A stretch of 55,183 nt of DNA, taken from positions 1-55,183 of the forward strand of contig JBHHXN010000015.1 of assembly GCA_046757025.1 (NCBI GenBank), read 5' to 3'. The notes under the pieces are model-generated. The model made no database searches, was not told where the DNA came from, and saw only the letters and a list, made by a program, of their open reading frames with translations. Source of the stretch: a bacterium. Lineage in GTDB: Bacteria; Zhuqueibacterota; Zhuqueibacteria; Oceanimicrobiales; Oceanimicrobiaceae. Positions 404-46,341 of this stretch are shown piece after piece (positions within the stretch are counted from its first letter, which is position 1; each line of letters opens with the position of its first letter). Both the position numbers and the translations under genes were made by a program.

Positions 404-983
404 AGCGGAAAGCATCGCCCCACTATTAAATACTTTGCGCGACCTGATGAACTGGTTCCAAACCGAACAAGTAAAAGGCATGGTGATTGGCGGCGTCGCG
501 GCATCTTTACTTGGTCGTCCTCGCTTTACACGGGATGTGGACGCCCTGGTTCTGCTTGAAGAATCGCGATGGGCAGAGTTTCTCACACAGGGGGCGCAAT
601 ATAATTTTATTCCACGCATAAGCGACGCATTAAAGTTTGCTCAAACATCTCGGCATTTTTTACTCAGACACAAGCCTGGTGGAATTGATCTGGATATTGC
701 GTTTGCGGCATTGCCCTTTGAAGAAAACAGCATTGCGAATGCCATAACCTTTGATATTGGAAACCTCATGTTACGCCTCCCAAATCCAGAAGATTTAATT
801 ATTATGAAGGCGGTTGCTTCCCGTCCAAAAGATCTAATCGATATTGAATCTCTAATCGACGCCAACTCCACTCTGGAATATTCACGCATACGACTTGTGG
901 TGCAGGAATTTGCGGATGCGCTTGATATGCCTGACCTTATTGAAAATCTTGAAAAAATTCTGGTAAAAAAGTGTAAAAAATAA
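396..983 (+). CDS. Nucleotidyltransferase (DUF6036/AbiEii-like, pol-beta superfamily)
   Basis: IGGVAA...RPRFTRDVDA motif, EDLIIMK...RPKDLIDI C-terminal motif; ATG at 396 overlaps the upstream stop. Confidence 0.8.
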   Translation: MAEAESIAPLLNTLRDLMNWFQTEQVKGMVIGGVAASLLGRPRFTRDVDALVLLEESRWAEFLTQGAQYNFIPRISDALKFAQTSRHFLLRHKPGGIDLDIAFAALPFEENSIANAITFDIGNLMLRLPNPEDLIIMKAVASRPKDLIDIESLIDANSTLEYSRIRLVVQEFADALDMPDLIENLEKILVKKCKK

Positions 984-7329: not shown

Positions 7330-8607
7330 ATGAAATTCGAAAAAAAACTTGCATCAAAATCGATCTTATTTACGATATTGCCGCCGCTTTTCTTCTGTCT
7401 TTTATACGCTTGGTTTTGCCAACCGGTTTTTTCACAAGTCGACACCCTGCGTGTGGCCACGTACAATCTTTTGAAATTTCCTGGTTCAACCGGGGTACAA
7501 CGGGTTCCCGCCTTTCGTACGGTCATTCATTTTATGAAACCCGACATTCTGATCGTGCAAGAGCTGCTATCGGAGTCCGGCTACCAGATGTTTCTACGCG
7601 AAGTGATGAATTTTCAGGAAGACGTGTATGAGGCCGCTCCGTTTCGCGACGGACCCGATACCGATAACGGTCTCTTTTATAATCACACTAAACTGCAGCT
7701 AATCAATTCACAACAGATTCGAACCGATTTGAGAGACATCTCAGAATATTCTCTCAAAGCGGGAGAAGTGGAATTTAAATTTTATTCCCTGCACCTCAAA
7801 GCGGGGAGCCGTTCGAGCGACCAAAATCGCAGGTTGAGTGAAACCACCACTTTGCGCAACCACTTGAACACCCTCGCAGAGGGCACGGATTTCATCGTGG
7901 GTGGAGATTTTAATATGCGTTCTTCATCTGAAACGGCTTACATCCGCTTAACAGAAGACCAGAATGACAACGACGGCAAACTGTTTGACCCGCTGAATTT
8001 GTCGGGGAATTGGCACGACAACCGACTTTTTTCACGCATTCACACGCAATCTACTCGTTCCAATTCTTTTGGCGGCGGCGCCTCCGGCGGCCTGGATGAC
8101 CGCTTTGATCTGCTGCTGATTTCCAGCAGCCTGATGAGGCACGGCGGCATGGACTTCCTGTTTGACAGCTACACTGCCCTCGGAAACGATGGCAGCCGAT
8201 TGAATGACAGTATCAACGCCGGCATGAATGGATCGGTGCCGGACAGTGTGGCGGATGCGTTGCTGGCGACTTCGGATCATCTGCCGGTGTTTGCGGATTT
8301 TGTCTTCAACTCCGTCACTTCGGTAACCACCCGGGGGGTGGCCAGAACGTTTTCGCTCGCTCAGAATTATCCAAATCCTTTTAATCCCACTACTACCATT
8401 TTTTTCACATTGGAAAGGCCCGCCCGTGTTTCATTGAAAGTGTTTAATTTATTGGGGCAAGTGGTCACCGTTTTGGTAGATGAACAGAAACCGAAGGGGG
8501 AATACCGTTTGCAATTCAACGGCGACGGTTTGGCCGGAGGCATTTATGTGGTGCAATTGCAGGCCGGGAACTTGTCGGAAGTTCGAAAAATGGTGTTAAT
8601 CCAGTAA
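7330..8607 (+). CDS. Secreted endonuclease/exonuclease/phosphatase (DNase I-like) protein with T9SS type-A CTD
   Basis: ATYNL, VQE, SLHLKA, GGDFN, SDHLPV motifs; C-terminal QNYPNPFNP...KMVLIQ. Confidence 0.9.
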   Translation: MKFEKKLASKSILFTILPPLFFCLLYAWFCQPVFSQVDTLRVATYNLLKFPGSTGVQRVPAFRTVIHFMKPDILIVQELLSESGYQMFLREVMNFQEDVYEAAPFRDGPDTDNGLFYNHTKLQLINSQQIRTDLRDISEYSLKAGEVEFKFYSLHLKAGSRSSDQNRRLSETTTLRNHLNTLAEGTDFIVGGDFNMRSSSETAYIRLTEDQNDNDGKLFDPLNLSGNWHDNRLFSRIHTQSTRSNSFGGGASGGLDDRFDLLLISSSLMRHGGMDFLFDSYTALGNDGSRLNDSINAGMNGSVPDSVADALLATSDHLPVFADFVFNSVTSVTTRGVARTFSLAQNYPNPFNPTTTIFFTLERPARVSLKVFNLLGQVVTVLVDEQKPKGEYRLQFNGDGLAGGIYVVQLQAGNLSEVRKMVLIQ

Positions 8608-11901: not shown

Positions 11902-11937
11902 TGTTCATTTTCTGCCCACATGCGCAAAAATTTACCA
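11902..11937. promoter_or_regulatory. Tandem putative bEBP UAS (TGNNCA-N5-TGNNCA-like)
   Basis: TGTTCA-TTTTC-TGCCCA and TGCGCA-AAAAT-TTACCA, ~90-120 nt upstream of a -24 element. Confidence 0.5.
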
Positions 11938-12023
11938 TTTAGTAACCAGGGAAATTCGTCATGTGGGTTGAAAGATAGTTGGAATTATGCCTGAAGATTG
12001 CCGAATTTGCTGAGGTTTATTTA

Positions 12024-12039
12024 TGGCATACAAGTTGCG
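12024..12039 (+). promoter_or_regulatory. sigma54 (-24/-12) promoter of the adhesin/motor operon
   Basis: TGGCAT-ACAAG-TTGCG with canonical spacing. Confidence 0.8.
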
Positions 12040-12102
12040 TGGATACGGGTTGAACTTAGAGAAAACTGCGAGAATGGACAGGTTTTTGAAGGAAACGGTG
12101 AA

Positions 12103-13137
12103 TTGAGAAAAGATTTTGTTTCGAAGATAAAAAGTCGTAAAAAAAAACACTTATTAATTAGCGGCCTCTTGTTAATAAGTGGGTGCGCTGGCAGCCAATT
12201 CCAGACTGTTGAGCTTTACATGCGACAACAGGACTGGCAAAAAGCACAAAGTTCATTGGATGAATATCTTAAAAAAAACCCCAGGGACGGGGAAGCGCAT
12301 CTTTTACTCGCTGAAGTGTTCGGAGAATTGGATTCCATTCAGGCCATGCGCAGAACGCTGACTACCCTCCGACAGATTTCTCCCAAATATGAAAACTCGG
12401 CGGTTTTCCTTTTGAAAAAATATTGGACTAAAAATTTTAACCGCGGTTTAAAGCTGTTTCAATTGAAAAACTACCGGCAAGCGGCCAATCAATTTGGACT
12501 TGCCGTGCAGATCGACAAAAGCCAATTTATTGGGCTGCAAAAATTAGCGGACGCGCTGTTCATGGCCGGTCGATATTACGAAGCCCAAACGGCGTACCAG
12601 CAAGCGTTAAACATGCAACCTGACAATCTGATTTTAAAAAACAATTTAGCGGAAATTTACTTCATTAAAAAACAGTACCAAAAATCGGTAAATTTGTGCA
12701 ACGAAATATTGAACAAACACGAACTGGAGATCAATGCGCTCATGCGGCGCGCTTATGCGTACGATGCATTAAAAAACTATTCGGAGGCGGTTAAGGATTT
12801 TGAACGATTGATTGAACTAAGTCCCACTCCCAAATTATTAACCGATTTCGGGATGTTGCATTTTCGCCAGCAGGAATACCACAAAGCCATCGACTATTTC
12901 ACCGCGGCTTTGGCAGACTCGTCGAACAATTATTTGCTCTACCGCTATCTCGGTGAAGCGAACTGGCGGGTGCGCAACTACCAGGACATGGTTACTTGGT
13001 ACCGGAAGATCGTGGAATCCTCCCCGGACGATCTTCTGGGCTGGAAAAACCTGGCGCTGGCGTACGAAGCCCTGGGCAAAAAACAACTGCTGGTGGAAGC
13101 CCGAAATCACATAGACAAAATCACCCGTACCAACTAA
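12103..13137 (+). CDS. TPR-repeat lipoprotein
   Basis: Lys-rich N-terminus plus lipobox LISGC; multiple TPRs; TTG 12103 chosen because it lies downstream of the sigma54 promoter. Confidence 0.85.
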   Translation: MRKDFVSKIKSRKKKHLLISGLLLISGCAGSQFQTVELYMRQQDWQKAQSSLDEYLKKNPRDGEAHLLLAEVFGELDSIQAMRRTLTTLRQISPKYENSAVFLLKKYWTKNFNRGLKLFQLKNYRQAANQFGLAVQIDKSQFIGLQKLADALFMAGRYYEAQTAYQQALNMQPDNLILKNNLAEIYFIKKQYQKSVNLCNEILNKHELEINALMRRAYAYDALKNYSEAVKDFERLIELSPTPKLLTDFGMLHFRQQEYHKAIDYFTAALADSSNNYLLYRYLGEANWRVRNYQDMVTWYRKIVESSPDDLLGWKNLALAYEALGKKQLLVEARNHIDKITRTN

Positions 13138-13167
13138 ACCAATTCATCATAATTCAGAGAGGATGTT

Positions 13168-16100
13168 ATGAGGATACGTGTCTGCGTATTCTGTGGAATG
13201 AGAACTGTTTTCTGGTTTCTGTTTTTAGGCTTGTTGCCCGCGGGCCTGCTTGCACAGCCCGAGGTTGCGCAGGTTGTGCCGCGCCAGAATGAAATCCACA
13301 CGCCGGTAACCAGCCGCGTAACCGTGACCTTTTCCCAGGACATGGATGCGGCCTCTCTGAACAATCAAACGTGGGTGGTCAGCGGCAGCCTTACCGGCAT
13401 TTACAGCGGGGTCATCACCTACGAAGCCGCCACCCGCACGGCGCACTTCACGCCCACCAGCTTTTTTAAAGAAGGTGAAATTATTTCGAGCACGCTGACT
13501 GCCGGCGTTCTCAGCCGCTCCGGGCAGCCCCTGTCGAAGCCGTTTCAATGGTCGTTCACGGTGAGTGTGGAATACGGCAGCGGGATTTTTGAAGAGCGCA
13601 TCGAGATCACCAATCCACAAAACGAGCGGGATGCCATCGCCATTTACAGTGGCGATTTTAACAACGACCGCTATGCGGATCTGGCCCTGGCAAATATGGC
13701 CACCAATACGGTAACCATCTACCTGAATCGATTTGCGGTGTTCGGAGGATCTTTTGAATTTCAAAACAGCGTGGCAGTGGGTAACGGTCCCAATTCCATC
13801 GCTGGGGGCGATTTTAACAACGACGGCTTGCTCGATCTCGCCGTCAGCAATTTCGACGGTAATAGTATTTCTTTGCTGCAAAACAACGGCGCTGGGAATT
13901 TCTCAGTTTCGCAAACCATTCCTACTGCCGAGCATCCCGTACAAATTACCACCCGAGATTTCAACAACGACGGCAAAGTGGATTTAGCTGTGCTGGCCTT
14001 TGGGGTGAATCGGCTGCAAATCATTTTGAATTTAGGCAATGATATCTTTTCGCCGACCTCGGAAAATTATGCTACCGGCGCCAGCCCTTTTGGTTTGACT
14101 ACAGGCGATTTTGACAACGACGGCGATGTGGACATCGTTGTCAGCAATTCCGGTGACAATTCCATCACCATGTTTGACAACCTTGGCCAGGCCCGTTTCA
14201 GCAACGCCGGCGAATTCGCAGTGGACGATTCCCCGACCATGATTCAATCCAACGATCTTTTAGGGCGCACGACTCCGAACAAATTTGGCGATGGACGGTT
14301 AGATTTGGTGGTAATCCACCCCAACCTCAACACGGTTTCCATACTGGATAATCGCACCCGCGACGGCGGCTTTGTGGTCAGCCAGAAACTGCAGGTAGGC
14401 GTGCGGCCGTCCGCGGTGGTCATCGCGGATATCGACACCACCGACCAGAGCGCCCTCACCGCCGGGCTCGGCAAAGACCATGATCTGGATCTGGCAGTGA
14501 CCAATTTATTCGCACAGAATCTCACCATACTAAGAAACGATTTCAATAACGGTCTGGCCTACCAGTCTGGCGACACGTACGCGTCCGGCGCCACCCCCAT
14601 CGCGCTCACCAGCGCGGATTTCGATGGCGACGGCGACCTCGATTTCGCCATCAGCAATTTCGCCACCAACACCCTTTCCATCTTATTGAACCGCGGCGGC
14701 CGAAGCGGCAACATTCGCATTTCTCTACCACCGCGTGTTCTGGACTTTGGGCAGGTGTATGTGGGAACCGATTCGGTGCGGCGGCTCAGTGTGATCAATC
14801 CTACCGGCGAAACCATCACCGTAGAAAACATTTCCACGACTTTGCCGGTTTTTACGGTCGCGGATTCGCAGGTGGAGATCGCTCCCGGGCAAACGTTTAA
14901 CCTGGCCATCACCTTTTCACCCATGGACACCGTAGTCTATGAAGACACCCTGACCTTTCGCACACAAGGATTGAGCAGCTTTGAAAATCTAACGCTGGGA
15001 TTGCGCGGGGAGGGCATTCGCGCTATCATCAGCGTTACGCCCGACACCCTGAATTTTGGCAACGTGCTGCCGCCGCAGTCGCGCACCCGGCCCATTCAAA
15101 TCAGCAACGGCGGCAACGGTGCCATCAAGATCAGCGACATGCGGTTCACGCATGCCGACTTTTCCACCCCCGACCCGAATCTGACCGTTCCAGCTTACTC
15201 CAGCCAAATGGTGGACATCACTTTTCAGCCAACGGCTGTGCGCGCGTATCTGGACACGCTGACCATTTTCAGCAACGACAGCAGTCAGTCGCAGTTCCCG
15301 GTGATTCTTCTGGGCGGGCCCAATCAATTTCCGCCGCAAATCACCTCCACCGACACCATGACCGCCGTGGAAGATGTCTTTGCGCAATACACCGCCACGG
15401 CAAACGATTCAGACGGCACCGGGGCGCAGTTTACTTTTCTGAATTTACCGAGTTGGCTGCAGGTCAGCTCACCCGCACCGGAAAACAACTCCATCGAAGG
15501 AACTCCCCGCGAGGGCGACTTAGACACGACCTTTGTGGTCATTGCCAGGGACGGCATTTTTTCTGACACCCTTTCGGTTTACGTTCGCGTCATCCCGGTC
15601 AACGATGCGCCGGTATTCAACGCCATTTCGGCGCAAACGGCGCAGGAGCTTTCTCCGCTCACTTTCAACCTGTCAGCTGCGGACCCGGAAGACAGCACTC
15701 TAACTTATTCGGCGCTGAATTTGCCCCAGGGCGCAGATCTCAGAAACAATCTCGATAATACGGCCACCTTTTCCTGGACGCCGCCCTTTGGCTCACGCGG
15801 GGACTACACCGTGACGTTTGTCGTCACTGAGCTCTGGGAATCCAATCCGCTGAGCGATACCACACAGGTCAAAATCAGCGTGATTGAAACGCTGCCGGAT
15901 TTAACCGTGGCTTCGCTGGGGATTAACGACACCGACATCACTTTGAATCAAACACGCTTGATAACCGGAGTTGCGCGCACTGAAATCGTCCCCGTGCAAC
16001 AGGCCTTCCGAATCACTTTTTTACACGATGGCAACGTGGTGCGGGATACGGTGGTCACCGGATTGGACTCGGGAGAGGAAGTGACTTTTCAGTATGCCGC

Positions 16101-16497
16101 GACCTTTGCGCGCCTGGGGAGTCACGAAATCGTGTTTTATGTGGACATGAGCAACCTGGTCACCGAAGCCGACGAAGAAAACAATTCAGCGGTTCTGCGT
16201 TTGAAAACCGCCCTGGGATCGGTGGTGGTTCGACCCAATCCGTTCACACCCAACGCCGACGGTTTCAACGATATGGCGGAATTCAATTTTGCCAAACTAT
16301 TTGTGCAGCAGCCACAGCTAAAAATTTATAAATTCAACGGCGATCTTCTGACCACCTTGAATCAACCTGTGGGAACGATTTTTCGGTGGGATGGCCGCGA
16401 TGATCGCGGCCGCGATCAGAAGCCCGGAATTTATCTTTACGTTCTCACCGATGACGAGCAAAAAGTCGCCAGCGGCTATCTGGTGCTGGCGCGATGA
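13168..16497 (+). CDS. Large adhesin: Ig-like (Big_5) + FG-GAP propeller + ASH/choice-of-anchor D + cadherin-like + CARDB + T9SS type-B CTD
   Basis: Signal peptide; GDFNNDG..DL repeats; LDFGQV/LNFGNV; VNDAPVF; PDLTV..EENN; PNPFTPNADGFND...WDGRD..GIYLY C-terminus. Confidence 0.88.
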   Translation: MRIRVCVFCGMRTVFWFLFLGLLPAGLLAQPEVAQVVPRQNEIHTPVTSRVTVTFSQDMDAASLNNQTWVVSGSLTGIYSGVITYEAATRTAHFTPTSFFKEGEIISSTLTAGVLSRSGQPLSKPFQWSFTVSVEYGSGIFEERIEITNPQNERDAIAIYSGDFNNDRYADLALANMATNTVTIYLNRFAVFGGSFEFQNSVAVGNGPNSIAGGDFNNDGLLDLAVSNFDGNSISLLQNNGAGNFSVSQTIPTAEHPVQITTRDFNNDGKVDLAVLAFGVNRLQIILNLGNDIFSPTSENYATGASPFGLTTGDFDNDGDVDIVVSNSGDNSITMFDNLGQARFSNAGEFAVDDSPTMIQSNDLLGRTTPNKFGDGRLDLVVIHPNLNTVSILDNRTRDGGFVVSQKLQVGVRPSAVVIADIDTTDQSALTAGLGKDHDLDLAVTNLFAQNLTILRNDFNNGLAYQSGDTYASGATPIALTSADFDGDGDLDFAISNFATNTLSILLNRGGRSGNIRISLPPRVLDFGQVYVGTDSVRRLSVINPTGETITVENISTTLPVFTVADSQVEIAPGQTFNLAITFSPMDTVVYEDTLTFRTQGLSSFENLTLGLRGEGIRAIISVTPDTLNFGNVLPPQSRTRPIQISNGGNGAIKISDMRFTHADFSTPDPNLTVPAYSSQMVDITFQPTAVRAYLDTLTIFSNDSSQSQFPVILLGGPNQFPPQITSTDTMTAVEDVFAQYTATANDSDGTGAQFTFLNLPSWLQVSSPAPENNSIEGTPREGDLDTTFVVIARDGIFSDTLSVYVRVIPVNDAPVFNAISAQTAQELSPLTFNLSAADPEDSTLTYSALNLPQGADLRNNLDNTATFSWTPPFGSRGDYTVTFVVTELWESNPLSDTTQVKISVIETLPDLTVASLGINDTDITLNQTRLITGVARTEIVPVQQAFRITFLHDGNVVRDTVVTGLDSGEEVTFQYAATFARLGSHEIVFYVDMSNLVTEADEENNSAVLRLKTALGSVVVRPNPFTPNADGFNDMAEFNFAKLFVQQPQLKIYKFNGDLLTTLNQPVGTIFRWDGRDDRGRDQKPGIYLYVLTDDEQKVASGYLVLAR

Positions 16498-16535
16498 TCG
16501 AATGGTACACACAGGAAGGCATCAGGAAGTCTCCG

Positions 16536-18329
16536 ATGAAATTTCATTTTAAAATAAAATTATCCATTGTTTTCATTCTGCTTTTTGAAATGTCGCTCGC
16601 AAACCCAGGCCGGGCACAGAATATGATCAGCGCCAATCCGGCTGAGCTCATCGATTTTAAATCGGTTTTTGTCAATCCCGCGATTCTCTCATTTCAAAAT
16701 GCTCACGCGGCGATGGGGGGTAAATTGTTTCATTTAGGCTTTGTGGAAAATCAACTGCAAACATTTCGTCAGGGTTTTGTGAGTTTGGCGCTGCCGTTTG
16801 GCATTGACGATTTTACTGGCATCGGCATTCAGGCGCAATATTTTAACACACCGCTGTTCAGTCAGAGCAACATCTCCTTTGCCGCGGCCAGACGCTTTCA
16901 TCGAATTTTATCGTTGGGGGTCAAACTGAATGTTTTCAACAAATCGTTTAATCGAGACAATTTTAATTTGGTCGAAGCAGACGATCCCGTTTTTGCCAAC
17001 GGTACCACTAAATGGAACGCCACTTTTGGCGCCGGGCTGTCCGTCATTCCCTACCCCTTTTTAAGATTGGGGGTGGGGATCGATCACATAAACCGCGCAA
17101 ATGTATCTTTAATTAATGACAATGTCTATGAACCATTCAAAAGCTATTTTGGCGTGGTGTTGACTTTTGGAGCCCTGCGTGCAGCATTCAGCGCCACCCA
17201 TGCAGAGGGGCAATTCCACCCCGAAACGTCCATAGGTTCGGCCTTCGCTCATGCCGGATATTTTATGCTCGGCTTCAACGACAAAGCCGTGCAGGTGGAA
17301 GGTCAGCTACGCATCACCGGTCCGTTGAGCATCAATTATCGTTACGATTACACGCTGTTCGACGGGCAGAGTGTGGGCAACGGCTCGCATCAAATCACCC
17401 TCATTCACGAATTTGATCGCAAACCCGCTTTACCGGAAATCAAGGTTCCGGAGGAGTTTCTGCTAAGATTCGAGCCGCCAGACAAACCACTGGTGGAAGA
17501 ATCCAAATTTTACATTTACCCTTCGCTAGACAAGCTGGAAATCATCCACAAAAAATTAACCCGCTTCATCGACCCCAATGTGAACCAGGGGGCGCTGTCA
17601 CAATTGTCAGCGGCCGATATCGGCGTTCTGGACTCAACTAAAACCGAGACTTACTTGCCCTTTGTGAAAGATACGGTGGATCAGGCAATTTTACCCGACC
17701 CGCAAGAGCTTAGTCTGTCCGGTAACTATCGTGCATTCATTGAAAAAATTTCTGAAGATTTAAAAATAAACAAGAGCCTTAAAACCCAGATTTTTACGCC
17801 CGGCGAATCCATGAGCCGGGCCGTGGGGTTGCGGGAATTTTTGCAAATCGATTCCACGGCAGCGAAGCAAGTGGCATTCTTACATACGACTTACAAATCG
17901 AAACAAGACAGCCTGCGGGCAGCCGAAAAGTTGGGACAACGATTCATTCAACCCCGAGAATCGCTGCTTCTGCTTTCGCACAACTCCACCACGTTTTCCA
18001 TCATACCCGTGTCGCAAATTCACTTTGCACAAAGCTGGCGATTCATCATTGAAAACAAGCGCGGAGAAAAAGTCAGAATTTTTCAGGGTATCGGCATGCC
18101 GCCGGATCAAATAGTGTGGGACTGGAAAACAGCCGAAGGCGAATTGGTTTCCCCTGGTACTTATCACTTTTACATGATCTGGCAGGATAACCAGCAGACG
18201 CAACATACCTCCGAAAAATACAATCTCTTTGTTCAAAAAATCATCAGAAACATCACCATAGAAGTCACCAATAAACCCAAACCTACAGGAGTAGATGCCG
18301 ATGAAATCAATATTATTCTCAAAAAGTAA
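16536..18329 (+). CDS. PorP/SprF-like outer-membrane beta-barrel with a ~300-aa C-terminal extension ending in an FlgD-like Ig domain
   Basis: N-terminal NPA motif, amphipathic strands, YRYDY...GSHQITL barrel end; later WDWKTAEGELVSPGTY; start may be 16494. Confidence 0.72.
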   Translation: MKFHFKIKLSIVFILLFEMSLANPGRAQNMISANPAELIDFKSVFVNPAILSFQNAHAAMGGKLFHLGFVENQLQTFRQGFVSLALPFGIDDFTGIGIQAQYFNTPLFSQSNISFAAARRFHRILSLGVKLNVFNKSFNRDNFNLVEADDPVFANGTTKWNATFGAGLSVIPYPFLRLGVGIDHINRANVSLINDNVYEPFKSYFGVVLTFGALRAAFSATHAEGQFHPETSIGSAFAHAGYFMLGFNDKAVQVEGQLRITGPLSINYRYDYTLFDGQSVGNGSHQITLIHEFDRKPALPEIKVPEEFLLRFEPPDKPLVEESKFYIYPSLDKLEIIHKKLTRFIDPNVNQGALSQLSAADIGVLDSTKTETYLPFVKDTVDQAILPDPQELSLSGNYRAFIEKISEDLKINKSLKTQIFTPGESMSRAVGLREFLQIDSTAAKQVAFLHTTYKSKQDSLRAAEKLGQRFIQPRESLLLLSHNSTTFSIIPVSQIHFAQSWRFIIENKRGEKVRIFQGIGMPPDQIVWDWKTAEGELVSPGTYHFYMIWQDNQQTQHTSEKYNLFVQKIIRNITIEVTNKPKPTGVDADEINIILKK

Positions 18330-19614
18330 AAAACCGGCGTTGAAAATATTCACCTGCCTATTCTGTACTTTGATGGTAGTAATTCTCTTGACTCTTCCCG
18401 ACAATTCTTTCGGCATGCAAAAGCAAAAAAGAGTGGCGAATCAGCCAACCCCATCCAGCGCGGCAACCGCTTCGCCAAAAACTTCTCTCGATGTGAGCCA
18501 GTTCAGCGACCTCAAAACTTTTTGGTCTTTGACCAAATTGGGCGGCGGCATCGCGTTAGTGATTTTTTTAGTTCTCGGGCTCGGTATCTTCCTGATCATT
18601 CTGCAAATTTATGAGTTGATGATCGACAAGTTCAAAGGCCGGGTACTGCTTTCCGTGGATTACCGGCAGCACACCATCAATGAAATGAGCGGTCTGGTGC
18701 AAAAATACCCCAACAATCTGACTGCCCGTTTGTACTCTATTTTGCTCTCGATTTTTCACTCAACAGGCAACACCCGCGACTTTCACGACGAAATCGCCAA
18801 TTACATTCAACTGCAGCAAGACCGATTTGCTACTTTCAAAGGCCGATTGGCTTTTCTTTCAGACACTGCCGGAGCGCTGGGCTTGTTAGGCACGGTCTGG
18901 GGTATGTTTGTGACATTTTTTGGCGGCAACCTGGACAGCCAGCGAATTTTGAACGGCATGGGTCTGGCCCTGGTAACCACCCTCATCGGTCTGGTGGTGA
19001 GCATTATTTTGAATTTCTTTTCAACCGAAGTCTTCAGCATTTTTAACAAACGTCTGGATATCATCGCGTCGAAAGCCGATGAATTCCGGCTCTGGCTCAT
19101 GGCCATCGTGCACCAGCGCAACAAAAAAAACAACAGCGGTGGCTCGCAACCCAACAACGGACCGGAACGCAAATCATCATCTCAACAGGAGACGTTCACC
19201 GCCACCCTGAACGAATCGGTGATCAATTCTCTTTCGCTGAAAGCCATTTCTGAATTCAAACAGGATGGCTTCATCGGGCACAAACTCAACGAACCCATCG
19301 CTATTTTTGTGGAAACCGCCCAGGGGCGTAAAGTCGCCGGCGTGCCCATTCGATTTGAGGTGGCCGAAGGCAACGGCGTTCTGGCCAACAAGAATCAGGT
19401 GGCCTGGGTTAAGACCGACAAAAAAGGGCTGGCTAAAATGGACTGGTTTCTCGGACATCAGGTGGCGCCGCAAAAACTCAAAGTTTCCATTGCCAACAAC
19501 ACGCAGGGGGCTTTGGAATTTGTCTCCTTTGCCCGCCCCTACATCGCCGACGAGCTAAAGAGCGGTGTGCCGGCGCGGCAGAACAGCGGACTGAACCAGA
19601 GGATGTCATCTTGA
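18295..19614 (+). CDS. MotA/TolQ/ExbB proton-channel protein with signal peptide and C-terminal Ig-like (Big_1-like) domain
   Basis: LGLLGTVWGM and ALVTTLIGL helices; GVPIRFEV..GNG..TDKKGLA..W.LG Ig pattern; start may be TTG 18340. Confidence 0.88.
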   Translation: MPMKSILFSKSKKPALKIFTCLFCTLMVVILLTLPDNSFGMQKQKRVANQPTPSSAATASPKTSLDVSQFSDLKTFWSLTKLGGGIALVIFLVLGLGIFLIILQIYELMIDKFKGRVLLSVDYRQHTINEMSGLVQKYPNNLTARLYSILLSIFHSTGNTRDFHDEIANYIQLQQDRFATFKGRLAFLSDTAGALGLLGTVWGMFVTFFGGNLDSQRILNGMGLALVTTLIGLVVSIILNFFSTEVFSIFNKRLDIIASKADEFRLWLMAIVHQRNKKNNSGGSQPNNGPERKSSSQQETFTATLNESVINSLSLKAISEFKQDGFIGHKLNEPIAIFVETAQGRKVAGVPIRFEVAEGNGVLANKNQVAWVKTDKKGLAKMDWFLGHQVAPQKLKVSIANNTQGALEFVSFARPYIADELKSGVPARQNSGLNQRMSS

Positions 19615-19615
19615 T

Positions 19616-20026
19616 ATGGGCACCGGCGGCACACTCATTCGTTTGATCGATATCGTTTTTATTCTGCTTTTCGGTTTTATTTCCATTTCCGAAATAAACG
19701 AAAAAAGTCAGATTGAGCTGCCCAAAAGCTCGGAAACTCCGCCATCGAACCCGGACAAAGAACAGGTGATTTTCGTGGGCATTCGCCCGGACGGCATCTA
19801 TCTTCTGGAACACGAACAAAAGATGATCGGCGATCCCTTGCAGCTTTTTTCGTACCTGCAAAATAAAGCGGCCCAGGCGGTTGAGCAGGGCACAGAAATT
19901 CGAGTGCGGATTCGATCCAATTTCGATACGCCCATCAAATACACCATGGCCGCTTCGGATATTTGCGATCATTTGAATATCCCAAAAGGCATCGACGTCC
20001 GCCGAACCAGCGGCTTCAGCCGATGA
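19616..20026 (+). CDS. ExbD/TolR family protein 1
   Basis: LIDIVFILLFGF TM with the conserved Asp; IELPKS; VRIRSN. Confidence 0.88.
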   Translation: MGTGGTLIRLIDIVFILLFGFISISEINEKSQIELPKSSETPPSNPDKEQVIFVGIRPDGIYLLEHEQKMIGDPLQLFSYLQNKAAQAVEQGTEIRVRIRSNFDTPIKYTMAASDICDHLNIPKGIDVRRTSGFSR

Positions 20027-20132
20027 TCAGGCCACAAATGGGAAACAACCGCAAGCCTTCTTTTAGAGAAACAGAAGTGTGCGGTTCAAAGCAAACAACT
20101 CATGAATTTGAATAAAAACTAAGGAATAAAAA

Positions 20133-20534
20133 ATGACCAAAGGTGGCATCATCATTCGACTTATCGACGTTGCTATGATCATCCTTTTCGGATTCATTGC
20201 CATCAGCGACATCAAAGTGCGGGCACAGATCAAATTGCCCTCCGACAAGTTAGAGACTGAACCGAAGAACCAGGAAGAGCCCATTTTGATCCGGGTGCAA
20301 ATCAGCGAAACCAATCGCTTTGCTATTAAAGAAAATGATGAAATCCTGATCGAAACAGTCAGCCTGGAGGAATTAGAGGACCGGCTGGCGCTAATTAAAA
20401 ACGAAAACCAGGAAATGGTGGTGCTCATCGAGCCCAACGAAGAGTCGCTCATCCAGAACACGGTTTATGTGCTGGATATTTGTGAGAAACACCGCATTCC
20501 AAAAAACATCAATTACGAAAGTTTGCAGTTCTAA
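20133..20534 (+). CDS. ExbD/TolR family protein 2
   Basis: LIDVAMIILFGF TM with the conserved Asp; IKLPS; VYVLDIC; TAAGGA RBS. Confidence 0.88.
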   Translation: MTKGGIIIRLIDVAMIILFGFIAISDIKVRAQIKLPSDKLETEPKNQEEPILIRVQISETNRFAIKENDEILIETVSLEELEDRLALIKNENQEMVVLIEPNEESLIQNTVYVLDICEKHRIPKNINYESLQF

Positions 20535-21592
20535 TGTATGTGATTTCAAATACAAAATCGAATACGGATAAAATTGTTGCGGCGTTTTTAACTTCCGCCT
20601 TTTTATTTGGATTTTACTTTTTCCTGCAGCGGCAAAAACTACCGCAGGTAAAGCTCAAAACCGACACGTACGAAGAGATCAACTGGTCAAGATTTAAACC
20701 GCAACCCCAAAAAGTCATCGACAAGCCGCAGCCGGTGAAAGTGAAAGAACCGCTGCAAATAGAAAAACCCCCATTGCCGCTACCACAGCCCAAAAGTGTT
20801 GAAAAGATCGATTTGAGCGCTTTAAACAACCTGGCGCTGGCTGATTTAAACCAGCCGAAAAAGTCTTTGAAAAAACCAACCTTAAAAAGTGAACCCTCGC
20901 GCTCGACTTCTGGTGGGCAAATGAAAGTCAATTTAAAAAAATCCCAGATGCTGGCCGGACTCAATATCTTGCTTGACAATTCATCGCGCAAACTTAATAT
21001 CCAATCCCGCGGTCAGCGCGGTAAGAGTCAAAATGCAAGCGGCGTTTTATCGGTGAAATCCGGCCAGGGTCTGGATGTGGGCAATGAAATCAATTACGCA
21101 GGCGGCTCACGCAGCCTGGGCACTCCCGAAGCGAAAACCGTGGGCGGAGGTGATATCCAAATCTCGGAGTTAGATCTGTCAGAGCTCGGTACGGATTACT
21201 CGGATCTGACGCCTGTTTACCGCGCACTGGTGGAGTGGATGAAGCAGCATCCGACCGCTTTTCCAGAAGTGGTTGGCAGGTTCATGGAAAAATCACCTCA
21301 GGATTTGACCTCCATCGTGCAATTCAAAATTGGAAATCGCCAGTTTCAACTATATCTACTGTGCAAAGAGAAATTGTATGAGGTGCGAATTTGTTTGCTG
21401 GAAGGCCATACTTCCACGTACCTCATCGATCGCGGTTTCAAGGAAAAAAGCCGCTTTTTGAGGGTGGGCACCGTGAACCGCAGTCAAACGGGGGCGCCCC
21501 TGGCCTTCAGTACCGTAAGGCAGGCCGCTTCAAACCAACGCACACAACAATTTTATCAGATCTTTCTTTCCTGGTGGGAAAGCGTCAACTGA
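20534..21592 (+). CDS. TonB/TolA-like energy transducer with a non-canonical C-terminal domain
   Basis: Single N-terminal TM, Pro/Lys-rich linker (KPQPQK..PPLPLPQP), Gly/Ser-rich region; start overlaps the exbD stop (TAATG). Confidence 0.65.
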   Translation: MYVISNTKSNTDKIVAAFLTSAFLFGFYFFLQRQKLPQVKLKTDTYEEINWSRFKPQPQKVIDKPQPVKVKEPLQIEKPPLPLPQPKSVEKIDLSALNNLALADLNQPKKSLKKPTLKSEPSRSTSGGQMKVNLKKSQMLAGLNILLDNSSRKLNIQSRGQRGKSQNASGVLSVKSGQGLDVGNEINYAGGSRSLGTPEAKTVGGGDIQISELDLSELGTDYSDLTPVYRALVEWMKQHPTAFPEVVGRFMEKSPQDLTSIVQFKIGNRQFQLYLLCKEKLYEVRICLLEGHTSTYLIDRGFKEKSRFLRVGTVNRSQTGAPLAFSTVRQAASNQRTQQFYQIFLSWWESVN

Positions 21593-21656
21593 ATTGTGTG
21601 CAGGAGTCTTTCCGTCAAATAGCATGGTAAGCATAAATGAATTTTCAGGAGTCAAG

Positions 21657-23186
21657 ATGTTGAACAAAATCATCTGGAAAGGCGTGATCGCCTTCCTGGT
21701 TTTCACCGGCTGCGCTGGTAATTTTTCAACCGCGAAAAAGGGCAAAAGCCGGCTTATGGTTCCCGCCGGTGTCGATTCTTCCGTAGCGATCAAAGCGGAC
21801 TCGCTTTCTAGGAATCTGTTCGTCTCTCTCAACCGCGAAAATCGAGCGGACAACTACAAAGCGCTGGGCGCCCAGAACACCAGCCGCAGCGATACCTTGT
21901 GGAAATATTTATCCAACAAACTGGATCCCTCGATCAAAATTTCTGTGCAGGATTCGCTGGCGGCCATTCGGGCATTCAATAAAGGTGCTTTGAATTTGCA
22001 AAAATTCGCTAAAATGCAACAATCCAGCAAGCCGAGTCAATCCCTGGAGTTGTTTAAATTGGAAACCCTGAAATTGCTGCAAAATGCGCGCAAGTATTTC
22101 GAGCAGGCCCTGATTCTGAATCCCTTTGATTTGGAAACCAAGAGCTGGCTGGCGCGGGTGTACCAAAGTCTGGCAGCGCGATTTTTAGACGACGACAACC
22201 ATGCGCGCGCCATCAAAATTCTGGAAAACCTGCTGCACATAGAAAAGGGCGAGCACGCGCTTTACGGTCGTCTGGCGGAAAGTCACTACGCACTCAAACA
22301 CTGGCAAGCCGCCCATTTTCACTTCCAAAAAGCCGAATCCGTACTGAGAGAAACCGCCGGCCTGGACTTCACGCACAGCGACTACACGCAGGATGTGGCG
22401 CTAGACACCGCCGCCCTGTTTTATTACGTTTACTACCAGGGCGACACGGAAATCAAAATGCATCTGGCGGCTCGCGGTACCAAAAGCCTGCAGCGCGCCC
22501 TGACTTACGCTTCCTCGCAGCAGGAGCGGGACGATATTCTCAGCTACATCGAATGGATCAACTGGGACGACGGCAATGTGGAAGCCGTGGAGCTGCGAGA
22601 CAAATATCTTGCTTTACAGGAGAAGAAAGAGTACGGTCAAGCCGCCAAAGGATTGTTAAGACTCATTCCGAAACTAAAAACCCGCCGCGCTATCGATGAG
22701 ATCGTCTGGCGTCTGGCGGTGCTGGAATATCAGTTTCTCCAGCGTCAGGATGCGGCAATGGAGCGGCTAAAACAGGTGGTCAAACTTGCGTCCAAAGACC
22801 AGAACGGCGCGCCGCTGGATTCTACCTATCAAAAATATTTCGACAGCTACGGCATCATGTGCCACAATTCGGGTCTGGAAAATTACACCAAAAACCGCAA
22901 ATTTGCCTTCATGTATTTTCAGCAAGCCGTGGCCATCGATTGGCGGAGCCGCGCTAAAAGCCATCTTGAAATCGCCAAACTATCGCGCAACAATCCACGC
23001 GCGGTAATTGAAAACTGTCAGCAGGCCCTCAAAGCGCTAAAACAATTGGACCCTAATGAAAAATTGCAAGTTTACCAGCTCATGGTGGAAGCCTTGAAGC
23101 GCACCGGCCAGTTCGATCAGGCGCGCACTTATTACGGGCAATGGATTGGACTCAAAAAAAGCAGCCAAAGGAGTAGCAGAAGATGA
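21657..23186 (+). CDS. TPR-repeat lipoprotein
   Basis: AGGAG RBS; lipobox FTGC; TPR patterns such as ARKYFEQALILNP. Confidence 0.82.
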   Translation: MLNKIIWKGVIAFLVFTGCAGNFSTAKKGKSRLMVPAGVDSSVAIKADSLSRNLFVSLNRENRADNYKALGAQNTSRSDTLWKYLSNKLDPSIKISVQDSLAAIRAFNKGALNLQKFAKMQQSSKPSQSLELFKLETLKLLQNARKYFEQALILNPFDLETKSWLARVYQSLAARFLDDDNHARAIKILENLLHIEKGEHALYGRLAESHYALKHWQAAHFHFQKAESVLRETAGLDFTHSDYTQDVALDTAALFYYVYYQGDTEIKMHLAARGTKSLQRALTYASSQQERDDILSYIEWINWDDGNVEAVELRDKYLALQEKKEYGQAAKGLLRLIPKLKTRRAIDEIVWRLAVLEYQFLQRQDAAMERLKQVVKLASKDQNGAPLDSTYQKYFDSYGIMCHNSGLENYTKNRKFAFMYFQQAVAIDWRSRAKSHLEIAKLSRNNPRAVIENCQQALKALKQLDPNEKLQVYQLMVEALKRTGQFDQARTYYGQWIGLKKSSQRSSRR

Positions 23187-23893
23187 AATTCAGATTCCCA
23201 TTTATTTTCGCCTTTTTGATCTGGTTAGCTCTCATCATTTTATCGGCCAAACTGTTTTCTCAACAAGGCAAAGACATGAAGGTCGATAAGATGTCGGTGC
23301 CGGTGGTGTCCATAAAAGATCGTGCGCTGATCGATTTTTTCATGTTCGAATTTTTTATCGCCGAAACCCTGGTGACACAAATCGACATCATCGACGCCAC
23401 TGGCAACGGTTTTGGGGAAGACGATCTGGTGAAGACCTACCCCTCGCAGGCCATCTACTTTCCTGTACCTTCGGACAGCGCCCAGAAAATCATGAACAGC
23501 TGGCAATTCAAAGCCAATTTTCAAATCGTCAGCGAAAACCGCGAACCCACGGAATTTGAAAATCCGACCAATGCCAACGCCCCGAACGGCATCTTTGCAG
23601 CCATTCTAAAAGGCGTCAATCGCAACTACCGCGATCAGCCCATCAAAATTTTATTCGAACGTGACAAAAATGGCGTGACGTTTGAAATGTGGGGCTATGA
23701 GCCGGCCGCATTGAGCTACACGCCGCCGCCACCGCCGGTGCCTGACTCGGTGGTCACTTACGATTTGGTGCACGTATTTCGAGCGGACACGCTCATCAAA
23801 GCCGACACCACCCTTTACGATTTGATCTATCTGTACAAAACGGTCAGCGACACCGTGTATATCGACAGCAAAACCAAAGCGAATTTGTTTTGA
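23183..23893 (+). CDS. Secreted hypothetical protein, last gene of the operon
   Basis: ATGA overlap, signal peptide, DATGNGFGEDD, poly-Pro, D-T/S-rich beta tail. Confidence 0.8.
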   Translation: MKFRFPFIFAFLIWLALIILSAKLFSQQGKDMKVDKMSVPVVSIKDRALIDFFMFEFFIAETLVTQIDIIDATGNGFGEDDLVKTYPSQAIYFPVPSDSAQKIMNSWQFKANFQIVSENREPTEFENPTNANAPNGIFAAILKGVNRNYRDQPIKILFERDKNGVTFEMWGYEPAALSYTPPPPPVPDSVVTYDLVHVFRADTLIKADTTLYDLIYLYKTVSDTVYIDSKTKANLF

Positions 23894-25323: not shown

Positions 25324-26166
25324 ATGAGATCATATAAATTGTTACTTTTTTTAGCCTTAATGATTCCAGCAACCCTGAGTGCTCAGGTGCGCATCAATGA
25401 AGTTTTACTTTCCAGTTCGGGTAACCAGGTGGAGTTAAAGAATTTCGGCGATGTGGCCGTGGATGTTTCCGGTTGGTTTTTGTGTTCGCGATTCAATTAT
25501 CCTGCCATCGCCACCCTCACCGTTCTTAGCGGCTCCAGGACTATCCCCCCAGGCGGATTGTTAGCATTAGGAGGATTAACGCTAAACAATGCTTCCGCCG
25601 ATCTGGGATTATATACCACTAACAGCAACTTTGCTATTCCTGACAATATGGAAGATTTCGTCCAGTGGGGCGGGGCCGGCAACGGACGGGAGTCGGTGGC
25701 AGCGACCAAAGGTATCTGGTCTAGCGGCGACTTTGTGCCCGCCGTGGTAGACGGTCACTCCATCGAGTATGACGGCAGCGGCAATTCCCCGGAGGATTGG
25801 TTCGATCAGGACAATCCAACCATCGGCGCCGAAAATGGCGTAGTGACGGGGGTTGAAGATGAGGTGGTCAACGTACCTTCGCAGTTCAACTTAGAACAAA
25901 ATTACCCCAATCCCTTCAATCCAAGTACGGTAATTCACTACACTTTACCGCAAAACGCGGATTTGACGGCGGTGAAATTGGATGTCTACAACATTCTGGG
26001 GCAAAAGGTCCGCACGCTGGTAAACGAAAACCAATCGGCAGGTCCGCACGCGGTGCTATGGAACGGCAAAGATGATGATGGCAATCTGGTGGCCGGCGGC
26101 ATTTACCTCTACCGATTACAAGCCCGTTCGTTTTCCGCTGTAAAAAAGATGACCTACTTGCGTTAA
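25324..26166 (+). CDS. Lamin-tail-like domain protein with T9SS type-A/FlgD-like CTD
   Basis: VRINEV, VELKNFG..VDVSGWFL; QNYPNPFNP...WNGKD..GIYLY..KKMTYLR. Confidence 0.88.
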   Translation: MRSYKLLLFLALMIPATLSAQVRINEVLLSSSGNQVELKNFGDVAVDVSGWFLCSRFNYPAIATLTVLSGSRTIPPGGLLALGGLTLNNASADLGLYTTNSNFAIPDNMEDFVQWGGAGNGRESVAATKGIWSSGDFVPAVVDGHSIEYDGSGNSPEDWFDQDNPTIGAENGVVTGVEDEVVNVPSQFNLEQNYPNPFNPSTVIHYTLPQNADLTAVKLDVYNILGQKVRTLVNENQSAGPHAVLWNGKDDDGNLVAGGIYLYRLQARSFSAVKKMTYLR

Positions 26167-34125: not shown

Positions 34126-37100
34126 TCACTTCAATAGGGTCATTTTTTTCGATTGACGAAAAGTGTGGGAAAGGTCTCGCGATGCCCGTGCAATCAATGA
34201 ATAAAAATAGACGCCGGACGACACCGCTTTACCGGCATCGTTGCGTCCGTCCCAGGTAATCGAATAAAAGCCAGCCGCTTTCATTTTCTGATCTATCAAT
34301 TTGCGCACCATTTGTCCCTTGATGTCAAACACCCAAATCGAAATCTGTGAGTTCACAGGCAACTGGTACTTTATGCGCGTTTCCGGGTTGAATGGATTGG
34401 GATAATTTTGAGCTAATTGAAAGTGTTCCGGCGCCGCCACTCTGGCGCTAATCTGGCCAAGAGTTTCACTCATGCCGGATTCGTAAATGATTTCCAGCGT
34501 GTAAATGTACTCAAAACCGCTGTTCAAGTTTGCGTCTTTAAACGAAAACACTTTTTCGCCCAACAGCGGTTTTTCATTGAGCTTTTTTCCGCGTTCATGT
34601 CGGGAGTGACTTCGCCACAAATTAAATCCAGCGTGACGGCTGCTGAAAGCAACTTCCCAGGTCAGCATCACGGTGTTTTCCTGCACCGTGGCATCGAAAC
34701 GTCCCAATTCCACTGGCACGGCAAAATCCACGTGCACCGCCACCGAGTCTGGCAGACTACTCAGGCCTTGATCGTCCACCACCACCAGGGTAAACAGGTA
34801 TTCGCCGGGTGCCAGGGTCACCGGCGGATTCACGACATCTGGTGGATCCGGATCGCCGCGCCATTCAAACCAGCTTATGGCGCCATCCCGATCAAAAGAG
34901 CGGCTGCCGTTTAAAACAACCTCTGCTGTTTTTTGACCGGCGGTTAGCTCCACCGTGACGTCGGCGCCGGCGTTCGCAAAGGGCGGTTGGTTTACAGTCG
35001 CCGGAAAAAACGCCAAACCGCTCAAGCCAGCAAATCCGGTGGCCAGAACAAATTCGCCTTCGCCGGTCACGGTATCGATGGTCACAATGCCGCCAGCGCG
35101 GGCATCGGTTCGACCCAGGCCGCCGTACAGTTTTCCGTCCGGGCCAAAAGATAGTGCCCGCACATCGGTAAAATTCATGGGGCCGATGACGCTACCGGCG
35201 CCCGATTGTACGTCGATGGCGATCAAATCAGAGCTGTTAGCTTCTGGCACCACGCCGAACAAACGACCATCGGCTGAAAACGCCAGATCCGCGACTACGC
35301 CAAATCCGGTGCTGCCCACCACACTCATTCCTCCGGTTTTCAGGTCAATTTCCACAAGCCGGGTAAATTCCGAAGAGTCCGGTTGAAAAACGCCAAACAA
35401 CCTGCCAGAAGGATGAAAATCCATGCCAAATATGATTCCCTGTGCGACTTTTTTGATCAGGGTAGGCGTGCCGGTGTAAATATTCAAATCGATCAAATTG
35501 CCGCTGTGGCCGTTGGTGGTACCCACCAAAACGCCATCTTTTCGAAAAGACATACCATTCACTTCGCCATACCCCAAAGTAGCGCCAACCACCGTAACCG
35601 AACCCTGGGGCAAATCCATGGCGATGAGGGTGTCTGAACGGGCGGTAGCGGCAAACAAGGTTGCCGGGGGCGGCGGTAGCATACCCATGCCCTCCAATGT
35701 CAGTGCTTTGATGGGATCGTCAAAGTCCGTGCTGACGACGTTGACGAGTGATTTCGCGGAGCCCAATTTTTTGGTTTTAAATATAATTTCAAATGAGGCT
35801 GTGGATTTGGGCTTCAGAACCAACGGCAACGCCGGCATTTGCAAAATGCGGGCGGATGAATCCTGACTGACAATTTGAGAGATAGAAATATCCTCGGTAC
35901 CGATGCTGCGCAAGCTCACGGTGCGGGTTAAGGTGGCGCTGTTGACAAGAATTTCACCGTAATCAATTTTCGGCGGAGAAAGCGCCAGTTGCGCACCCGC
36001 GAGCACGGCCGGACGCATGGCCAGTCCGCTCACCGAAGCAAAACCAATCCTGCCAACAATCAATCCTTTACCGGTGAATTGATCGATTGCGATCAATTCA
36101 TTTTGAGATTTTCCGCCGCCTTTCACACCGAATAAATTCCCCTCTGCGTTGAAAACCAGATCCGGAGTCGCGCCGCCCAAACCGGTGACACCGACGAGAA
36201 CGGCTGCGCCTGTTTGCTTGTCGATGGTGAAAATGCCGTCTTCTACCCGCGGTCGAAAGCCGGCGGTGGAACCCCAAAGTGCGCCGTCGAACGGATCGAA
36301 CGCCAGACCAGCAAAGAGATCGCCGGTGTACCCGATAAATTGCGTCTCGCCGCTTCGGGTATCGATGGTATATAAATTAAAATTGCTGTTCACGCCGTAC
36401 AGAACATTGTTTGAATCAAAGGCGATGGCATCCAAAAATCCCAGACCGGTTTCGGCCACAAAGATGGCTTTGCCCGTGGCCGCATCGATGCGATAGAGAT
36501 CACCGCTGACGCGTTCGGTGCCGAAAATTTCGCCTCTGGAATTGATGGCCAGACCCGGCACCCCATCCAGGCCCGTGGCGCCGACAATGGTGCCGTACCC
36601 CGTTGCCGGATTGATGGTGAGCAAACTGCCGGGCACGCTTCCCCGCTTGCCCGTGGAAGCATAAAAAACCCCGAAATCCGCCGCAGAGACCGGTTTAGCG
36701 TGCCCAAAGAGCTCGATGGATTTAATGGGTTTGGCCGCGTCATTGCTGAAAATCTGCAACAGCGAGCGGAAGTCGCCGGTATCGGCCGGTGCAAAGGTCA
36801 GGTGAAACAAATAGCTGCTATCCGGCGGCAGCACCAGCGGCACGGGGGGAAGGCTGTCGGCCACAAATGGCACGCCCGGTTCAGAAACAGCTGAAATCGC
36901 TAAGTTTTGTGAACCAATGTTTTTTACGGTCAACGTTTGCGGGGGGCTGACCTCCCCGGCAAAAAGCGACCCAAAATCCAGAAATCCAGGACGCACGTAA
37001 ACCACGGCTCCACTAAAACTGGTGAATTCATCCGCCGCCAGGGCCGCGGGATTTGATTGCACGGACATGACATCCGTAACCGCGCCGCTGTTCGGAGCCA

Positions 37101-46271: not shown

Positions 46272-46341
46272 TTTAAATCTCGAGTGTTAATCCAATGACG
46301 ACAAGAAATGCCTGAATTTTGTAATCTAAAAACAGACCGCG

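Follow-up and report, generated by a model that had tools for sequence, protein, structure and literature searches.

Several proton-driven stators are known to work at the outer membrane, namely those of the Ton and Tol systems, flagellar stators, Agl-Glt and GldLM. The Agl-Glt system of Myxococcus combines one TolQ-like and two TolR-like subunits with TonB-like connectors, tetratricopeptide repeat (TPR) proteins and barrels serving surface adhesion; Glt is not known to include any T9SS (type IX secretion system) element. The subject of the present analysis is an operon of nine genes (g1 to g9), which fills positions 11998-23893 of a 55,183-nucleotide stretch of DNA from a bacterium of the Zhuqueibacterota (contig JBHHXN010000015.1 of assembly GCA_046757025.1; the whole stretch is hereafter called the window). 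This operon encodes an ExbB/ExbD-type motor together with an adhesin-like protein carrying a T9SS signal and a PorP/SprF-like outer-membrane barrel. Full-text literature searches found no published description of such an operon.

Within the T9SS, GldLM/PorLM is described as a proton-driven inner-membrane motor serving exported adhesins (PMC8986121). Proteins with a C-terminal domain (CTD) of type B are reported to bind and need cognate PorP/SprF-like proteins (PMC9143113; PMC12618676), the secretion of type-B cargo being described as requiring its cognate shuttle (PMC12618676). PorE, the partner of PorP, has been proposed to be Tol-Pal-like and may use a TolA/TonB-like transducer (PMC12204202). 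In the operon studied here, the motor genes are co-conserved with the genes of the barrel and the adhesin, by synteny as well as by phyletic pattern. With slightly less than even confidence, we propose that the operon builds an envelope-spanning, proton-driven force transducer, which would exert its force on a surface adhesin that is retained by a dedicated outer-membrane barrel. Families were assigned with Pfam and NCBIfam profiles, and the genome referred to below is the window's assembly (G000).

The adhesin, its barrel and the motor

The g2-g3 pair resembles the type-B pair SprB-SprF in that an adhesin with a CTD of the CHU_C/TIGR04131 type is encoded directly upstream of a PorP/SprF barrel, in a genome that also encodes SprA and PorV. 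Indeed, (i) the C-terminus of g2 scores 31.9 bits with CHU_C (Pfam cut-off 27), and FG-GAP_3 matches six stretches of the same protein (118 bits), (ii) CHU_C scores of 31.9-35.9 bits were recorded, all above the cut-off, and the domain is present in 45/45 of the proteins encoded just upstream of g3-type genes, and (iii) PorP_SprF (PF11751) scores 37.9 bits on residues 87-303 of g3 (cut-off 22.3) and matches 30 of the 38 g3 orthologues. The AlphaFold2 model of g3 (predicted local distance difference test, pLDDT, 82.9) has a 14-strand barrel at residues about 70-306, for which Foldseek returned FadL-type channels and the PorV chains of two SprA complexes (8gl6_F, 6h3i_F; target TM 0.55); the fold matches to the FadL, TodX and TbuX transporters have E values of about 1e-9. 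The barrel that a first-pass annotation of the DNA, made without database searches, had recognized at 16536-18329 is thus classed in the PorP/SprF family by Pfam, and its modelled fold is FadL/PorV-like. The genome encodes a single type-B CTD protein (g2) and a single PorP-type barrel (g3).

In contrast to SprB-SprF pairs, the barrel carries a conserved C-terminal tail of about 300 residues, in which AlphaFold2 predicts a hairpin followed by an alpha/beta domain (391-477) and then an Ig-like sandwich (488-591), and the pair shares one operon with an ExbB/ExbD motor. Also different from SprB-SprF and PorE is that no PorE-like OmpA protein is encoded in the operon, that GldK, GldL and GldM were not found, and that the NCBIfam cut-offs are not reached. 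The sandwich of the tail is similar to T9SS CTDs: the g3 profile weakly matches many CTD proteins of the genome, and FlgD_ig was found in 6/38 g3 orthologues. A profile search of PDB sequences with g3 gave only weak hits, which link its tail to the C-terminal domain of PorU (E 0.04) and to FlgD (E 0.38).

The motor shares with Ton systems a channel protein of the MotA/ExbB family with conserved membrane threonines, two ExbD proteins each with its membrane aspartate, an anchored protein with a Pro-rich linker and a barrel partner. It differs from them in that neither a TonB_C domain nor its fold was recognized in g7, in that the operon encodes no receptor with a plug or TonB box (neither feature was identified in g3), in that g3 is a 14-strand barrel versus the 22 strands of a receptor, and in that g4, which has a Big_1 domain, belongs to a clade apart; ordinary Ton sets are encoded elsewhere in the genome. 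In brief, g4 starts with a signal-like sequence, has three membrane helices and ends in a single Big_1 Ig domain (residues about 300-420). For an intimin/invasin-type domain such as this one, the cytoplasm would be an odd location. Most of the 417 relatives of g4, whose source names include KSB1, Calditrichaeota, Rhodothermaceae and Balneolales, also have Big_1, in one or two C-terminal copies, a domain not found in the short paralogues. Residues T200 and T228/T229 do not vary.

In a quick maximum-likelihood tree, 32 rows of the g4 family fall on one side of a branch (Shimodaira-Hasegawa-like approximate likelihood ratio test, SH-aLRT, 91), opposite the seven other MotA/ExbB/TolQ proteins of the genome, and the clades within the family follow phyla; the search was a quick one and the outgroup has long branches. 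The family is distant from solved stators, its profile matching the PDB sequences of ExbB (E 0.003) and TolQ (E 0.007) about equally poorly, and the Ton equivalog models score far under their cut-offs on the motor proteins (exbB2, 28.1 versus 135 bits). Judged from its sequences, the motor appears to form a clade of its own, separate from the ordinary ExbB-TonB, Tol-Pal and MotA systems of the genome. An ExbB fused to an Ig-like domain and two ExbD transcribed with it as one unit are described for Poribacteria (PMC5087111), and this unit is a possible relative. The abbreviation "SprF" used in that paper is unrelated to the barrel family.

The connector g7 is modelled as a membrane helix (residues 10-33), about 170 disordered Pro/Lys-rich residues and a conserved, confidently predicted C-domain (208-352), in which three helices and a six-strand sheet are followed by a last helix. 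It belongs to no Pfam or NCBIfam family and has no PDB sequence match at E <= 1; Foldseek gave no match at E <= 0.001, neither TonB nor TolA appeared in the fold-search lists, and the best hit of a wide structure search, a spirochete flagellar sheath protein (Z 6.0), is inside the chance range. The protein was initially called TonB-like, a designation which holds for its build only, because it has one membrane helix, a Pro/Lys linker and a folded C-domain but no family, no TonB_C having been found by sequence or by fold. A conserved A-T-L-Y stripe with four-residue spacing is kept in the membrane helix and, by analogy with TonB, may be a packing face. Furthermore, g9 belongs to no Pfam or NCBIfam family. 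In a protein atlas, the best scores for the g7 C-domain and g9 were 0.82, to be taken as leads only, and a complex prediction combining the g3 tail, g9 and the g7 C-domain gave no verdict (score 0.00, in a run made without controls).

Among the 80 related loci described in the next section, g7 is present in 63 and g9 in 54, and phmmer matches to g8 occur in 52. Of the 45 loci that have the g5, g6, g7, g9 set, 6 are missing g8, which is therefore dispensable for the core set; g8 is absent between g7 and g9 in L049, L057, L058, L061, L072 and L089, a clade that includes Zhuqueibacterota.

With Agl-Glt the likeness is one of design. A homology with AglRQS/Glt, which the first-pass annotation had put forward, was not supported: the NCBIfam link is limited to GltE (25.1 bits, cut-off 225) and comes via the TPR repeats, the tree covering the g4 family and the paralogues of the genome.

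The T9SS background was examined in the same way. The genome encodes SprA (867 bits) and PorV (PorV_fam, 303 bits; T9SS_OM_PorV, 239.9 bits, under its cut-off of 250), as well as type-A CTD proteins, at least 150 in number, and a "T9SS-dependent M6-like inactivated metalloprotease" (667 bits). SprA is present in 5/5 other carriers of the operon examined, Gemmatimonadota included, and is over its cut-off in 78/81 genomes of the window's phylum, with 65/65 among the high-quality ones. The search for T9SS genes proposed at the outset thus recovered sprA and porV and failed to find gldK, gldL and gldM: in G000, GldL and GldM have no match, and canonical GldK was not found, the only matches of its model being to FGE-sulfatase domains in proteins unrelated to it. 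In the window's phylum, 0/81 genomes gave a match to GldM (TIGR03517), with a model that may miss distant forms, and the absence of GldLM is unproven for this reason. In the phylum of the cultured Rhodohalobacter (genome G001), the GldM model is over its cut-off in 9/41 genomes; within that sample, none of the 9 GldM genomes is among the 2 that have g7. A 33-bit partial GldM match in G001 was rejected, as it corresponds to a 222-aa open reading frame (ORF) outside any gld operon. GldLM/PorLM and the operon would have in common a proton-driven inner-membrane motor serving T9SS-exported adhesins, as predicted here; they differ in that the operon's stator is of the ExbB/ExbD type, with another connector protein, and in that GldL and GldM have no match in the genome.

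Other envelope motors are encoded in the same genome. These include an ordinary Ton set, ExbB-ExbD-ExbD-TonB (TonB_C 81 bits), a second set TonB-ExbB-ExbD, a MotA/PomA-like stator and a canonical, complete Tol-Pal operon on contig C97, with TolB (397.6 bits, cut-off 343), Pal (137 bits, cut-off 125) and CpoB (127 bits, cut-off 90). The operon shares with Tol-Pal the stator-connector-TPR gene order and an envelope-spanning build, but it contains neither TolB nor Pal. A second cargo-barrel-motor cluster, outside the window, is located on the minus strand of contig C21 (C21:4643-21206; locus L133). It encodes, in this order, 1558-aa and 996-aa proteins with FlgD_ig/type-A CTDs, a 707-aa PorV-like barrel, a 545-aa ExbB-like protein, two ExbD, a 197-aa protein of unassigned function and a 1073-aa NHL protein.

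Co-conservation and distribution

A scan of one genome per species yielded 147 g4 relatives, of which 80 loci were kept and compared with profiles for g1-g9 built in this analysis. The full g1-g9 order is found in 23/80 loci (22 by script, and L071, which has overlapping ORF calls and was read manually). These complete loci span KSB1/Calditrichota, Rhodothermales and Balneolales; the cultured Rhodohalobacter (L097) has a complete operon. In 67 loci the upstream flank measures 2.5 kb or more, and in 46 of these a g3-type gene lies directly 5' of g4. The downstream flank measures 5.5 kb or more in 46 loci, of which 45 have g5, g6, g7 and g9 after g4. Among the 21 loci without an upstream g3, 4 have g2-g3 after g9 (L052, L053, L063 and L065, in the rearranged order g4 to g9, then g2-g3), 12 are from Gemmatimonadota, and 5 are others or contig ends. 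A paralogous set ordered g3'-g4'-cargo-cargo-g5'-g6'-g7'-g8' was identified in Calditrichota CLD2 and in a Zhuqueibacterota genome (L131 and L132, with g9' in L132). In this set g4' has no Ig domain, the motor gene directly follows the barrel gene, and two CTD-like cargo genes are located between ExbB and the two ExbD.

The phyletic pattern was assessed in 81 genomes sampled from the window's phylum, g4 being counted where the match covers the membrane part; counts of g4, here and below, are those among the matches listed. A g4-type gene is present in 26/81 genomes and a g3-type gene in 29/81: both occur in 25 genomes, g4 alone in 1, g3 alone in 4 (barrel-only matches) and neither in 51. Furthermore, 31 of the 36 g4-type genes have a g3-type gene within 10 kb. 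The linkage of the nine genes, as first read from a single locus, is therefore recovered elsewhere, with the full order in 23 loci and with barrel and motor together in 25 genomes and apart in 5.

The Gemmatimonadota loci (L074, L100, L102 and others) contain g4-g9 only. Their g9 proteins are about 590-600 aa long, a length that includes a C-terminal half of about 350 extra residues; the extra 348 residues have no Pfam family and no PDB match. In L100, the gene after g4-g9 encodes a 776-aa protein that has an FGE-sulfatase domain.

Layout and surroundings of the operon

The nine genes are all on the plus strand and tightly packed, with successive gaps from g1 to g9 of 30, -4, -35, 1, 106, -1, 1 and -4 nt (coordinates in Table 1). 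A sigma54-type element precedes them, and the tight, sigma54-promoted run of the first-pass annotation was found again. The element is the sole strict TGGYAY-N5-YTGC match on the plus strand of the 55 kb window, and a sigma54-type element was found 5' of g1 in 8/29 related loci, each at 45-62% g4 identity (including L067, 45%, and L046, 46%); L047 (42%) has none. The true start of g1 is probably TTG 12103, 3' of the promoter, because the element sits within the ORF as listed; the true starts of g3 and g8 are likely ATG 16536 and ATG 21657, respectively. Scans for sigma70 promoters and terminators gave counts not above those of shuffled controls. Among sequencing runs, four DNA holders, all from one study, and no RNA holder were listed. 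Pfam families confirmed the initial reading of a type-B adhesin, a PorP-like barrel, a MotA/TolQ/ExbB protein, two ExbD and TPR lipoproteins. In agreement with the same reading, Pfam and NCBIfam detected neither TolB nor Pal among the products of the operon, and a TonB-dependent receptor was found neither there nor in the flanks; no peptidoglycan-binding (OmpA/Pal) domain was detected in g1-g9 with these profiles.

Table 1. Coordinates of the operon and its promoter element in the window, and of the two paralogous loci in other genomes
Feature	Coordinates	Strand	Remarks
Sigma54-type -24/-12 promoter element TGGCATACAAGTTGCG	12024..12039	+	TGGCAT-N5-TTGC
g1, TPR lipoprotein	12103..13137	+	ORF listed from 11998; TPR_2 98.8 bits, TPR_16 91.5 bits; lipobox LLISGC
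g2, 1109-aa secreted adhesin-like protein	13168..16497	+	Signal peptide, Big_5, FG-GAP propeller, ASH/HYDIN Ig, cadherin-like, CARDB, type-B T9SS CTD
g3, PorP/SprF-like 14-strand outer-membrane barrel with tail	16494..18329	+	PF11751 (PorP_SprF) 37.9 bits
g4, divergent ExbB/TolQ-type stator subunit	18295..19614	+	MotA_ExbB 50.5 bits
g5, ExbD/TolR-type subunit	19616..20026	+	PF02472 41.8 bits; membrane Asp12 (LIDIV)
g6, second ExbD/TolR-type subunit	20133..20534	+	PF02472 49.4 bits; membrane Asp12 (LIDVA)
g7, inner-membrane-anchored connector	20534..21592	+	N-terminal membrane helix, Pro/Lys-rich linker, folded C-domain
g8, second TPR-like lipoprotein	21594..23186	+	TPR_19 34.7 bits (weak); lipobox VFTGC
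g9, secreted protein of no known family	23183..23893	+	Signal peptide
Paralogous locus L131	G003:C18:52000-71999		
Paralogous locus L132	G005:C32:82000-101999		

The flanks of the operon, which encode a mechanosensitive channel and a UbiA prenyltransferase, are unrelated to it. Elsewhere in the window, three T9SS cargo candidates with type-A/FlgD_ig CTDs are encoded: a protein of the endonuclease/exonuclease/phosphatase family (7330-8607, plus strand), a protein with a lamin-tail domain (25324-26166, plus strand) and a 1638-aa propeller/Ig protein (34126-39042, minus strand). Two DUF4388 response regulators and an NtrC-type sigma54 activator (Sigma54_activat 238 bits) are encoded on the minus strand at 45042-48180 and 50195-51577; the activator is 27 kb away from the sigma54-type element that precedes g1. 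An AbiEii/DUF6036-type nucleotidyltransferase (234-983, plus strand) is a candidate toxin-antitoxin or defence component.

Proposed mechanism and rival explanations

In the proposed force transducer, g2 would be exported by Sec and then, via its type-B CTD, by SprA, after which its cognate barrel g3 would take it over and hold it at the surface, in the way SprF does for SprB. The subunits g4, g5 and g6 would form a stator of the ExbB/ExbD type driven by the proton gradient. The part of TonB or TolA could be played by g7, anchored beside the stator by its membrane helix, which bears the A-T-L-Y face, and with its linker crossing the periplasm. The C-domain of g7, acting jointly with g9 and the two TPR lipoproteins (g1 and g8), may engage the 300-residue tail of g3, which would be periplasmic, so that the work of the motor would move, tension or switch the adhesin after its export. 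The general idea of a Ton/Tol-like transducer fits the suggestion published for PorE (PMC12204202).

Several points weigh against this proposal. The NCBIfam models for the pair stay under their cut-offs, with 28.2 bits for TIGR04131 on g2 (cut-off 35) and 46.5 for TIGR03519 (PorP) on g3 (cut-off 90.55). Under the standard topology of ExbB, the Big_1 domain of g4 would be cytoplasmic, which the model leaves unexplained. Neither a TonB nor a TolA fold was recognized in the C-domain of g7, and no TonB box was identified in g3. The contacts among the nine proteins are inferred. Most genomes of the window's phylum lack the operon, which is therefore optional. Lastly, the two Gemmatimonadota genomes tested (2/2) carry g4-g9 and no g3 at E <= 1e-8, so the motor half can work without the barrel or the adhesin.

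The motor could instead be a dedicated secretion or hand-over engine, pulling the g3 shuttle and its type-B cargo off the SprA pore for this cargo only, a reading that we regard as unlikely. GldLM is thought to pull the shuttle with type-B cargo off SprA in Bacteroidota, and such an engine would be consistent with the GldM counts (0/81 genomes in the window's phylum versus 9/41 in that of G001), with the failure to find GldL and canonical GldK in G000 and with the position of the cargo genes inside the motor operon of the paralogous cluster; the need of type-B cargo for a cognate shuttle in secretion, as described in PMC12618676, also agrees with it. However, the genome encodes its many type-A CTD proteins (at least 150) and SprA is present in about 52 genomes without the motor, among the matches listed, and export in the window's phylum therefore needs no such motor. 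The Gemmatimonadota, moreover, retain the motor half without any g3, and the GldL and GldM models, which gave just the 33-bit partial match in G001, may miss distant forms. In a broader version, suggested in part by the first-pass annotation, the motor would be the general T9SS engine of lineages without GldLM. This version agrees with the presence of SprA in all 6 carriers examined, with the failure to find GldM in the window's phylum and with the non-overlapping g7 (2) and GldM (9) genomes of the G001-phylum sample. It is nevertheless highly improbable: SprA is far commoner (78/81 genomes) than the g4-type motor (26/81), which is therefore not a general T9SS engine, and the operon has its own single cargo and shuttle.

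That g4-g9 are found alone in Gemmatimonadota would also agree with a Tol-Pal-like envelope system, in which g4-g9 would serve to tether or stabilise the outer membrane, with g1-g3 as an add-on anchored to this system. The order Q-R-R-connector-TPR indeed recalls tolQ-tolR-tolA ... cpoB, and PorE has itself been proposed to be Tol-Pal-like, with a possible TolA/TonB-like transducer (PMC12204202). However, the genome already has a complete Tol-Pal operon, no OmpA/Pal peptidoglycan-binding domain was found in the nine proteins and most genomes of the phylum lack the system, which makes this function rather improbable. The fold of g3, which matches those of FadL, TodX and TbuX (E about 1e-9), and the resemblance of the motor to Ton systems would suit energised import, with g3 as a FadL-like channel opened by the motor for a substrate captured by g2. 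This seems very unlikely, since neither a plug domain nor a TonB box was seen, g3 belongs by sequence to PorP/SprF and not to FadL, and the partner protein always carries a T9SS type-B signal.

Among these explanations, the force transducer acting on the adhesin after export is the one judged most likely here, and the initial interpretation of the locus, a proton-driven motor energising or moving a T9SS-displayed adhesin, is partly supported as a whole: motor and adhesin/barrel genes are co-conserved, the motor groups apart from the ordinary ExbB/TolQ/MotA proteins of the genome, and the barrel is recognized as PorP/SprF. It is also conceivable, if doubtful, that the operon represents a further class of Ton/Tol-type envelope machines, of an age sufficient to be common to Calditrichota/KSB1, Rhodothermota, Balneolota, Zhuqueibacterota and Gemmatimonadota, in which an ExbB-Ig/ExbD2 stator and a connector of new fold would drive a PorP-anchored, T9SS-delivered adhesin for GldLM-independent gliding, retraction or grip; in phyla without GldLM, each shuttle barrel might then have its own Ton-like motor (compare the C21 cluster).

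In summary, the operon would add another form to the proton-driven stators working at the outer membrane, one whose output is genetically tied to a type IX adhesin and its PorP-like carrier and whose connector g7, like g9, belongs to no known family. It bears on the role of type-B cargo-shuttle pairs after export, and on how T9SS phyla showing no GldLM couple energy to the cell surface.

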